This document shows, one piece after another, positions 39,025 to 42,445 of a DNA stretch of 64,000 nucleotides (position 1 is its first letter; each line of letters opens with the position of its first letter). The DNA comes from Plasmodiophora brassicae (lineage: Eukaryota). The notes beneath the pieces were generated by a model. That model was not told where the DNA came from. It saw nothing but the letters and a program-made list of their open reading frames with translations, and made no database searches. The DNA is taken from assembly GCA_036867785.1 (NCBI GenBank), contig CP145421.1, forward strand, positions 868,001 to 932,000, given 5' to 3'. The position numbers and the translations under genes were made by a program.

Positions 39025-40676
39025 TCATTCGAAATTGGTCTTGACCGGATTCGCAGGGATCGTGACGTCGACCTTCTTCCGAGGTCTGGCCCTGCAGTTC
39101 ATGACGACGGCGGCGATCGCGACAGCAAGGATGACAAGGCCGACGGCAGCCGCAATGATGAGCAAGAGCGTCTTGGACATGGGCGGCTCGTACGGTCTGG
39201 CTTGTGGAGGCGACACGTCCTGCTTCGTGCCCTTGGCCTTGATATGCCGCATCAGGGTCATACCAGTTTGTCCAGTCGCTGCTCCGGCTAGGAGACCCAT
39301 CCCGACCCACTTCTGCTGCAAGCCCGTAGAAGACGTGGGGATTGTTATGACTTCCTTCGGGGCGGCGTGGAACGCGAACCCGCCAGCTCCAACTGCACCT
39401 AACGTACCCAATGCTCCATCCCATGCACGATTCCTGTTCGCGGTGTTCAGCTCTTTGGTTTTGCGTTCCAGATCCGATGTCTTCCTGGCGATATCTGCTT
39501 CGCATTGCGCCACCGTGCCGTTCGTTGCTTGCTCCACCTTGCCAGTGATGATTGTCTCAAGATCGTTGAGCCGACATTGAAGATCATCGCGCTCGGTAAC
39601 CGGCGTGATGTACATCTCATTCAACCTCTGGTACGGGTCGCCAGACATCAACGTTTCGTAATGAGTCTTCTGACGCCTGATTGCATCTTCTTCAGCGCGT
39701 TGATCGGCTTCGGTTCGGTTTTTAACCGAGCCGATACCCTGGTATTTCTCGAAGAGATCGGGGTATCTCTCCTGCACCACCTTGTCGATCGCTTCAGAGC
39801 GCAGCAGCGCATTCGCAGCATCAGCCTCGGCCTGCAGGTCCACGATAATAGCATCGTTGAGACTCGCTTTCGCGGCGTCTCTTTCCCACACAGCCGCATC
39901 GTACTTCTTCCTTGCAGCAAGTTTGCTCTTCACAAGGTTCGCAAGTTCGGGCTCGTGTGCGATGAATTCCTTCGACGGCTCTTGTTCCGTATTGAGAGAC
40001 TTGACCTGGTCCGTCTTGCGGTTGGCATTATCGATTGCGGCTCTGTTCTGCCGTTGCTTTCCAGGGTTCTGGAAAAAGAGGTCATTCACACGGAAGGTTT
40101 CCACATAGGACAAATGTCCCATCCACGACTGCACGTTTTCGACGACGTCATCTCTGGTGTTCGCCACTCTATACAACGTTGTCAGTGTATGACGGTGCTG
40201 GAATAGACTTGTGTAACCTACTCGACAGCCTCGACCATTTTCAAGTGGTCCCGGTCTTCAGCCCGGAAGAAGCCGACTGGAGGTATTTGATGGCCTTTGC
40301 CTGTGGAGGCGTGTATATGGAACCGCAGCATGCGAACACCGTCACAACCTTCGAATCTGTCAGGCGAAGACATTTCTCGCATGAAACGTTCAGGATCCAT
40401 GACAACTATCCTGGAAGTGAGTCGCAATCAGCGAGTCGAAAGAGCGTCGATGGCTACAGAATCATACCCCATATCGCGGCCGGCCACGACGCTGTAGCAG
40501 CACTGAACTAGAGTCACTGTGCTCTGGCCATAGTTGTCCACTGTGCACTTGCCGTCTGCCATGCTTTCATGTTGACAGATATTGCAAGAGGAACTCCATT
40601 CCTGGAACGTCTTGTAGGACAGGCCCATGCAGGAACACAGCACCAGAGCCCATACGAACAGGAGGCCGTACTTCAT
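39025..40676 (-). CDS. Secreted Cys-domain/coiled-coil/TM surface protein (family member A); 2 introns
   Basis: Signal peptide MKYGLLFVWALVLCSCMG; WSSSCNICQ; spliced exon RFEGCDG...FFRAEDRDHLKMVEAV; ORF 39025-40176 with coiled coil, GLLAGAATG and C-terminal TM. Confidence 0.75.
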
Positions 40677-40862
40677 CTTCACGACCAGCGATGGCAAGGT
40701 GGCTGACCGGAAATGACGTTCGCAAGGGACCGGAGCCCGAAGTTGCCTGGGATGGCGGACGGGCGTCTCAAAACACTGAATTAGCCCTCTGCGCACCGAT
40801 TTAGACTTGCAGATGCCGTCCGAAGGCGCTGTGCCGCTCTCGCAGGACTCAGTCGCCAAATC

Positions 40863-42445
40863 ATGAAGGCCGTATGGATTACGTTTAGCACGGCGGCATG
40901 TTTGCTCGCCATGCTGTCGCCGGTGCAGGTCAGCGGCAGCATCCGCACGTATTCGGCCTGGGCGCAGTCCTGCCAGATGTGCCAGAGCCCGGAAGTAAAC
41001 TGCGTCCAGGTCCCAGGGTCGAGTCCCACATCGGCACAGGCAATCATGTCGGTCGCAACCCCGCTTGCGTGCATGGAAACCCGCGTCATCGCCACTGACC
41101 TGATGGTATTCCACCAGCACGGTGCCCGCAGATTGCAACTGCCCCGGGTGCTTGAGGCTCCCTCCATCCAGAATGGCAGGTTGCGATGGCGCGCAGAAGA
41201 TCATCTTCTCGTTCTCTTACAGCAGACCCATGGTAAAAGCCGTCAATAACGAGTTCCTCCGACCGGGCGACAAGGAGCACCTGAAGAGTGTGCAAGCCAT
41301 CGGGTATATTGTGCCTGCGTGGTGCAGATCGGATGTGAACAGTGGCTGACCGCCGCTGCCATCGCAGGTTCCGCAACATCTTCAAGCTGCACGACGGCGC
41401 CATTTCGCTCTGGTCGGACTTGTTTCCATGGATCGAGTGGCTATACGGCGACAACGACGTCGTAGTGCAAGGGCATAAGACGTTGGCGACGGAGCGACAC
41501 ATACGAGAAGCCGAGGGCGCCCTGGATGCGGCGCGCGGCGACATGACGGGCAAGCTGCGCGACGATATCGCCCAGCTCGAACGCGACGCCGAGCTTGCGA
41601 ATGAGGAGGCCGACGGGCATCGTGCTGCGCGAGTCGAAAAGCAACGCATGCTGCGCGACAAGATCGCCGACCTGTCTGCCCAGCGCGAGCCGGCCGTTCA
41701 ACGTCGTCATCGCGAAATACAAGCGATCGTCGAAGAAGCGGACGCGAACGCGGCCGAGAACCGCCGTTTGCACGAGAAACGGGTGGCGGAATGGCAGCAC
41801 ATCATCAAGATCAAGCAGGACGAGTTCGCTCGACTAGAACAGCGCTTCACGACGGACCTGAACGCGACGATCGCCTCGCTCAAGGTCCGGGTCGACGACC
41901 TGACCGCCAACATGGACGCCCTCGTTGAGAAGCGCATTCACGAGAGCCTGCGGGTCGTCGAATGCCGCCGGACGCTCTCGCTGCTCGAGGCGTCCATCAA
42001 GGAGAAGCAGGGCAACGTCGACAAGACCCGGGCCAAATGGTCGACCATCCCGTGGGGTATCGCAGCCGGCCTCCTTGCGGGTGCCGCCGCTGGGCGAACG
42101 TCGCTGAAGGCCCCCGATATTGTTGTCAAAGCGACACCCGCGCCGACAGCGGCGCCGTTCGCCAAAGGGGCTGCCCTGGCGGCGATCACCGCGATTGGTG
42201 TCAACGCGTACGCTGACCGCCTATCGGCGAAGGCCCGTGCCGAAATCAGCCGGGTCAAGAACGCGGCGGCGGCGGCCCGACCCGCAAGGACAAGGGCATC
42301 CGGGCGGATGACCCTCCTGTACCTGATGCTTGGGCTGACCGGCGCCCTTGCCATCGCTGTCGTCGTCGGCGCCGTCATGCACAAGAAGCTCACGAGCGTG
42401 CCGACCATGTCGGATGCGGTCCCGATTCGCATCCTGGAATTGTGA
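40863..42445 (+). CDS. Secreted Cys-domain/coiled-coil/TM surface protein (family member B); 2 introns
   Basis: Signal peptide MKAVWITFSTAACLLAMLSPVQVSG; WAQSCQMCQ; RMAGCDG...FLRPGDKEHLKSVQAI; coiled coil, GLLAGAAAG and C-terminal TM. Confidence 0.75.

Follow-up and report, generated by a model that had tools for sequence, protein, structure and literature searches.

An apparently lineage-restricted, head-to-head gene pair of Plasmodiophora brassicae encoding candidate type I membrane glycoproteins

A divergent pair of distant paralogs

Within a 64,000-nucleotide stretch of Plasmodiophora brassicae DNA (contig CP145421.1, positions 868,001 to 932,000, referred to here as the window, with coordinates counted from its first letter), we analyzed two divergent genes that lie head to head, with start codons at 40676 (minus strand) and 40863 (plus strand) and 186 bp between them. 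In the reading that we favor, with slightly more confidence than doubt, they would encode lineage-restricted type I membrane glycoproteins that arose from an old inverted tandem duplication, are stalked and probably oligomeric, and tether or appose membranes. The minus gene (coding sequence 40676..39025) gives a protein of 513 amino acids (aa) and the plus gene (40863..42445) one of 482 aa, the spliced frames being open over 513 and 482 codons, respectively. A preliminary description of this DNA, made from the letters alone, had already placed the two ATGs at these positions and listed three shared N-terminal motifs, W..SC..CQ, R..GCDG and F[FL]R..D[RK][DE]HLK.V[EQ]A[VI], all of which are present in both spliced products.

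Global identity between the minus and plus proteins is about 26%. In exon-by-exon BLASTP comparison of the paralogs, the best value belonged to exon 2 (1e-7), followed by exon 1 (2e-4) and exon 3 (1e-3), while pairs crossing both species and paralog type (see below) gave 9e-8 and 3e-6. The four introns of the pair are all GT..AG and in phase 2, and both intron positions are equivalent in the two genes. The second lies at the same codon, right after the HLK motif, as had been described before, and the first turned out to be shared too. Exon 2 measures 189 nt in one gene and 186 nt in the other; in each case residue 21 of the peptide that it encodes is the first of GCDG. Exon scores, cross-species pairs and intron positions agree, and the two genes are distant paralogs, similar beyond chance. 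The inverted duplication proposed in the preliminary description is thereby upheld, as two spliced, transcribed genes with the same order of domains. No third copy was found within the 64-kb window by tblastn with both proteins.

Transcript evidence and strain differences

Contigs from four public sequencing runs belonging to four studies (X1, X2, X6 and X7) were placed on positions 38500 to 43000. The runs were guessed to be RNA, and their contigs carry spliced joints. Each of the four introns, whose confirmation had been left to transcript data, is skipped in contigs of two or three of the four runs (Table 1), and the third exon of the minus gene is covered by contigs in all four. Both plus introns remain unspliced in X1 (record 4) and X6 (record 15), while contigs of these runs do splice the minus gene; intron retention may be the cause, or else the presence of DNA in the runs. 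According to the portion of PMC4471660 available, the mean intron of P. brassicae is 60 bp long. Contig cover continues through the 186-bp intergenic region, so either the 5' transcript ends of the pair touch or overlap, or the runs contain some DNA. Contig depth cannot rank the genes by expression. As for the co-regulation that had been thought probable, what the contigs would indicate is limited to the presence of both genes in the same runs and to cover across the spacer.

Contigs and window differ at 34 sites between 39130 and 42481. Fourteen of these fall in each coding sequence, and in each gene nine are synonymous and five nonsynonymous. Random coding changes are mostly nonsynonymous; since synonymous changes between strains prevail in both genes, the pattern suggests purifying selection. 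The spacer contains a 60-nt indel (40748-40807) that is absent in the X6 and X7 contigs. Its TG..CT ends are non-canonical, so that it is not an intron but a strain difference, which shortens the spacer to 126 bp. In the same two runs a 3-nt deletion (42263-42265) leaves one alanine fewer in the Ala run of the plus protein, and the public record of this protein, P0008, has the same shorter run.

One apparent joint, 39102/42371, with 37 foreign letters, was dismissed, as it came from an unrelated 5.8-kb contig sharing 19 GC-rich bases. The GC-rich stretches 39102-39120 and 42354-42371, which code for the transmembrane segments, have 18 to 19 bases in common with this high-depth contig (X2, X6 and X7), and this produced the false joint. 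The G+C content of the window is 53 to 71%.

Predicted protein anatomy

Topology was judged by Kyte-Doolittle means over 19 residues. Both proteins begin with a signal-like segment (peak 1.7 to 2.0, with small residues at -3/-1), followed by a head of about 145 residues. In the minus type, six head cysteines (CxxC, C, CC and the C of GCDG) are common to the P. brassicae protein, P0007, and its ortholog from a second organism, P0009, at residues 31, 34, 44, 59, 60 and 92 of the former and 34, 37, 45, 60, 61 and 90 of the latter. The plus type (P0008) has seven head cysteines in a pattern unlike that of the minus type.

After the head comes a stalk of about 200 residues, helical and charged (33% D/E/K/R), in which a crude scan found a patchy heptad signal. 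A long helical region is predicted at residues 168 to 393 in a low-confidence model. Of the long coiled coil claimed in the preliminary description, the charged helical region is thus found in both proteins, while the heptad signal is only patchy and the models are poor. One stalk cysteine is conserved in all four members that were aligned (P0007 C355, P0009 C362, P0008 C323 and P0011 C171, the last being the plus-type ortholog). Some NxS/T sequons are also kept between orthologs: N283 and N349 of P0007 correspond to N286 and N356 of P0009, and N289 of P0008 to N139 of P0011.

Two Gly/Ala-rich segments lie between the stalk and the membrane anchor. They are 16 to 20 residues long, uncharged and of GxxxG type, with Kyte-Doolittle values of 1.0 to 1.5, a hydrophobicity too weak for firm transmembrane helices, against 2.4 to 3.2 for the C-terminal transmembrane segment (TM), which is preceded by a basic linker. 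That TM had been predicted for both proteins and is clearly marked in each. The glycine-zipper pair described before is real insofar as the nonapeptide GLLAGAA.G occurs in both proteins; it falls, however, in different Gly/Ala-rich segments, the second one in the minus protein and the first in the plus protein. Not being at an aligned position, it would be a recurring motif rather than an aligned one. The minus tail is 41% identical to that of the ortholog, which ends NPVKTDFE. Identity between the plus type and its ortholog is 64% in the TM, 80% in the tail and 25% in the stalk.

Table 1. Exons, introns and predicted protein features of the gene pair, with positions in the window
Feature	Position	Strand	Details
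Minus exon 1	40468..40676	-	Signal peptide at residues 1-18, then W..SC..CQ...KC...CC, holding five of the six cysteines conserved in the head
Minus intron 1	40411..40467	-	57 nt, GT..AG, phase 2; skipped in contigs of X1, X2, X6
Minus exon 2	40222..40410	-	189 nt; encodes IVVMDPERF...GCDG...FFRAEDRDHLKMVEAV
Minus intron 2	40169..40221	-	53 nt, GT..AG, phase 2, directly after ...DHLKMVEAV; skipped in contigs of X1, X6, X7
Minus exon 3	39025..40168	-	Residues 134-513: end of head, predicted helical stalk, two Gly/Ala-rich segments, TM, tail; stop codon 39025-39027
Stalk cysteine C355 codon	39502..39504	-	Minus protein
Two Gly/Ala-rich segments, minus residues 384-440	39247..39417	-	Uncharged; GLLAGAATG in second; Kyte-Doolittle peak 1.15 (P0007), 1.3-1.5 (P0009)
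Minus TM (residues 464-489) and 24-residue predicted cytosolic tail	39028..39177	-	Tail ends NPVKTNFE; Kyte-Doolittle peak 3.16
Shared 5' intergenic region	40677..40862	.	186 bp between start codons; spanned by contigs (X2 record 10, 40467..40974; X1 records 3 and 4)
Plus exon 1	40863..41047	+	Signal peptide (about residues 1-24) and W..SC..CQ...KC
Plus intron 1	41048..41117	+	70 nt, GT..AG, phase 2; skipped in contigs of X2, X7; agrees with public model P0008
Plus exon 2	41118..41303	+	186 nt; encodes TVPADCNCPGC...GCDG...FLRPGDKEHLKSVQAI
Plus intron 2	41304..41367	+	64 nt, GT..AG, phase 2, position same as minus intron 2; skipped in contigs of X2, X7
Plus exon 3	41368..42445	+	Stalk, Gly/Ala-rich segments, TM, tail; stop codon 42443-42445
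Stalk cysteine C323 codon	41963..41965	+	Plus protein, counterpart of C355
Two Gly/Ala-rich segments, plus residues 348-409	42038..42223	+	GIAAGLLAGAAAG in first; Kyte-Doolittle peaks 1.1 and 1.39
Plus TM and 20-residue predicted cytosolic tail	42308..42442	+	Tail ends RILEL; Kyte-Doolittle peak 2.4

Family distribution and searches for known families and folds

An exhaustive search with a profile of the two proteins against 1,835,955,588 representative proteins (E up to 0.001) returned seven matches, all of this family and none from a well-characterized housekeeping family. Four of them are the two P. brassicae proteins themselves (P0007, 513 aa, the product of the minus gene, and P0008, 481 aa, that of the plus gene) and the open reading frames (ORFs) of their unspliced DNA (P0010 and P0012). 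The other three come from a second organism. P0009 (523 aa) is an ortholog of the minus type (30% identity, 6e-71) and P0011 (325 aa, partial) of the plus type (36% identity, 6e-55), while P0013 (50 aa) corresponds to a piece of exon 2 and has its end at the same ...IG as exon 2 of the plus gene. Since there is one ortholog per type elsewhere and the cross-type pairs score only at the values given above, the duplication is older than the split of P. brassicae and the second organism, and the family is tiny. The matches indicate an orphan family confined to this parasite group. Homolog searches with each protein retrieved only that protein itself, and a search with an alignment only P0007 and the fragment P0010. 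No DNA coding for P0009 or P0011 turned up when metagenomes were scanned with these proteins.

The long ORFs of the two genes (39025-40257, minus strand, and 41339-42445, plus strand), like the spliced products, are each 99% identical to one public P. brassicae protein, filed as uncharacterized, unnamed or hypothetical. The family had been called unrecognized, which needs qualification: both proteins are already deposited, although no described family matches them. Their N-terminal peptides were not found in the supplements of PMC4471660 (3 files) or PMC4815078 (11 files searched).

Five full or partial proteins and four head-domain pieces gave no Pfam match at or near the curated cut-off, with E values up to 10 considered; the nearest weak match was ABA_WDS (E 0.03 to 0.07, 14 to 15 bits against a cut-off of 25). 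Sequence profiles of the PDB yielded nothing below E 0.2, the best values being 0.76 at full length and 0.22 for the head. In the ESM Atlas there was no usable match by features, and structure matches reached a TM score of 0.28 at most. Mean pLDDT of the AlphaFold2 models was 38.5 at full length and 45.5 for the head domain. With these low-confidence models, Foldseek against the PDB gave a best E of 0.013 (TM score 0.33), and a wide VIA-align search a best Z of 5.7, under the stated background of 7 to 8. Because the models are poor and the fold searches remain in the noise, they neither name nor exclude a fold for the head.

One source labels P0007 as "Band 7 domain-contain..." and NCBI tags it "(mitochondrion)"; no search supports either label. 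With E values up to 10 considered, Pfam gave no Band 7/SPFH family and the PDB profile matches included no SPFH chain. The pair resembles SPFH/Band 7 proteins in having an alpha/beta domain followed by a long Ala/Glu-rich helical region, but differs in its cysteine-rich, secreted-type heads, which are not known as a feature of SPFH proteins.

Possible functions of the pair

As membrane tethers, the two proteins would be built, in order, of a cleavable signal peptide, a disulfide-held alpha/beta head, a helical stalk, two membrane-proximal Gly/Ala-rich segments, a TM and a cytosolic tail, so that the head and stalk form an ectodomain facing the lumen or the outside. The single conserved stalk cysteine together with the helical stalk suggests that stalks associate in parallel, linked by disulfides, to form an oligomer that may combine both paralogs. 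Next to the TM, the Gly/Ala-rich segments would probably be embedded in the membrane or rest on it. Such a complex might hold a binding head roughly one stalk length away from the parasite membrane and in this way tether or appose another membrane or a wall, while the conserved tail could serve sorting or bind a cytosolic partner. The low copy number, the single ortholog per type elsewhere and the prevalence of synonymous changes between strains speak for a core role in cell biology rather than for a diversifying host-exposed coat or effector.

Complex prediction of the minus with the plus protein gave a score of 0.49, against 0.00 for the best of three controls, with runs agreeing in at least 51% of contacts and a partner pLDDT of at least 55. 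Of 78 solved complexes 51 attained the mark applied, as did 2 of 108 mismatched pairs; at scores of 0.60 or less only 5 of the 78 solved complexes did so, whereas all four passing mismatches (of 180) fall there. The prediction thus lends weak support to a heteromer of the two paralogs, with which the retention of both types is also compatible. Since a pass does not distinguish between family members as the binding partner, a homo-oligomer would fit just as well.

Several points weigh against a conserved stalked tether. The orthologs are only 30 to 36% identical, which leaves room for a fast-evolving surface or recognition role. The heptad scan was crude and its signal patchy and, the structure models being poor, sequence features are what the fold of the head, the coiled coil and the oligomer rest on. 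It is conceivable that the Gly/Ala segments are genuine TM helices, in which case the C terminus would cross the membrane three times. Finally, the head-to-head adjacency says little on co-regulation, because a spacing of 186 bp is ordinary in P. brassicae's compact genome, where intergenic distances are mostly <800 bp and overlapping untranslated regions occur (as stated in the available part of PMC4815078).

The preliminary description had proposed stalked adhesins or coat proteins. In this form the pair would act as host-facing surface proteins of zoospores, plasmodia or spores, the head binding a ligand of the host or wall and the stalk projecting it, which agrees with the type I topology, the conserved sequons, the disulfide-rich head and the faster divergence of the plus-type ectodomain relative to its TM and tail; contigs of the spliced form also come from runs of four studies. 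We nevertheless consider it unlikely, given that there are just two genes, with one ortholog per type elsewhere and no expansion within the window, that synonymous changes prevail between strains, and that no adhesion domain appeared in the Pfam scans. A two-component alpha-helical pore-forming toxin or a cell-cell fusogen, whose glycine-zipper hairpin would permeabilize or merge a target membrane, seems very improbable. Glycine zippers occur in channel-forming proteins, and the pair shares with such GxxxGxxxG segments a repeated small-residue spacing in uncharged stretches beside a membrane anchor; these runs are present in both proteins (GLLAGAATG and GIAAGLLAGAAAG), adjoining a long helical region, and the two types are conserved together as a pair. 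The strong permanent TM and conserved cytosolic tail, however, make a soluble alpha-pore-forming toxin unlikely, and the layout is not that of class I fusion proteins, because the Gly/Ala segments follow the helical region, between stalk and TM, instead of standing N-terminal to heptad repeats. Nor did any toxin or fusogen family match in Pfam or in PDB sequences, and no glycine-zipper Pfam family was matched either, the segments here coming after a long stalk on the luminal side of a type I protein from a eukaryote.

The nearest architecture found, with its parts in the same order, is that of the Kar5/Tht1/GEX1/Brambleberry proteins. In these, a signal peptide precedes a cysteine-rich domain at the N terminus, in which six cysteines are conserved; one to three coiled coils follow, and the C terminus carries two to three TMs (PMC4291462 and PMC7586128, in the portions available). 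Outside the cysteine-rich domain, the members are reported to have little sequence in common (same portion of PMC7586128). The pair, or at least the minus gene, could be a highly divergent member acting in karyogamy, in plasmodia or after zoospore fusion, with the plus type as a lineage-specific partner. Both proteins have the N-terminal signal peptide, seen as a hydrophobic peak, a cysteine domain, a helical region after it (in the low-confidence model) and a C-terminal hydrophobic cluster, in a length of about 500 aa. In the minus type in particular, six cysteines of the head are conserved, a helical stalk is present and three hydrophobic segments stand toward the C terminus, and the length of 513 aa is close to the domain map of Kar5p, which extends to residue 504 in the part of the literature available. 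Poor sequence sharing within that family and the unresolved timing of karyogamy in P. brassicae (PMC7586128 and PMC4471660, as far as available) would leave space for such a member.

We regard this as quite unlikely, and membership in Kar5/GEX1 is not supported by the sequence comparisons. PF04163 (Tht1) did not match at E up to 10 in any of the full or partial proteins or head pieces, and the exhaustive profile search found nothing outside the family, though GEX1 homologs of other eukaryotes should be in the library. The cysteine gaps of the minus type (3, 10, 15, 1 and 32, with CxxC and CC) are unlike those of Kar5p (12, 23, 14, 11 and 25, from cysteines 56, 68, 91, 105, 116 and 141 in the available part of PMC4291462). 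In the plus type the head cysteines number seven and are arranged differently, and two of the three C-terminal hydrophobic segments are weak (1.0 to 1.5). The pair differs further in that its gene is duplicated into two types. Among the literature matches listed, no paper named both Plasmodiophora and GEX1.

By analogy, there is a slim chance that the two proteins are halves of a phytomyxid-specific membrane-merging or coupling machine, either a functional analogue of Kar5/GEX1 or a relative diverged beyond recognition. A disulfide-linked heteromeric stalk would then draw two membranes together, those of plasmodial nuclear envelopes or of zoospores undergoing fusion, with the glycine-zipper segments contacting the bilayer.

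Culture of P. brassicae is not possible, and little is known of its cell biology as regards the surface, the interface with the host, the fusion of zoospores and karyogamy. A conserved, transcribed pair of putative membrane glycoproteins restricted to one parasite group could be a handle for antibodies, localization and stage markers and, should it prove to be part of a fusion or tethering machine, it would be relevant to the sexual cycle, which is unresolved. For now, this is an orphan family whose overall architecture is ordinary.

Genomic neighborhood

Upstream of the pair, 37148-37786 (plus strand) encodes an Elongin A domain (E 1.4e-08), with no functional link to it. The downstream neighbor, 42668-43990 (plus strand), belongs to glycosyltransferase family 61 (E 4.5e-17), and word depth in the contig at its start is 130 to 217 (X6 and X7) against about 5 to 20 over the pair. 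Farther downstream, positions 47141-50137 (plus strand) hold an open frame of 998 codons in which PPR repeats and an E motif are accompanied by a DYW deaminase domain at the C terminus (DYW E 1.1e-31), the architecture of a plant-type RNA-editing factor in a rhizarian parasite.

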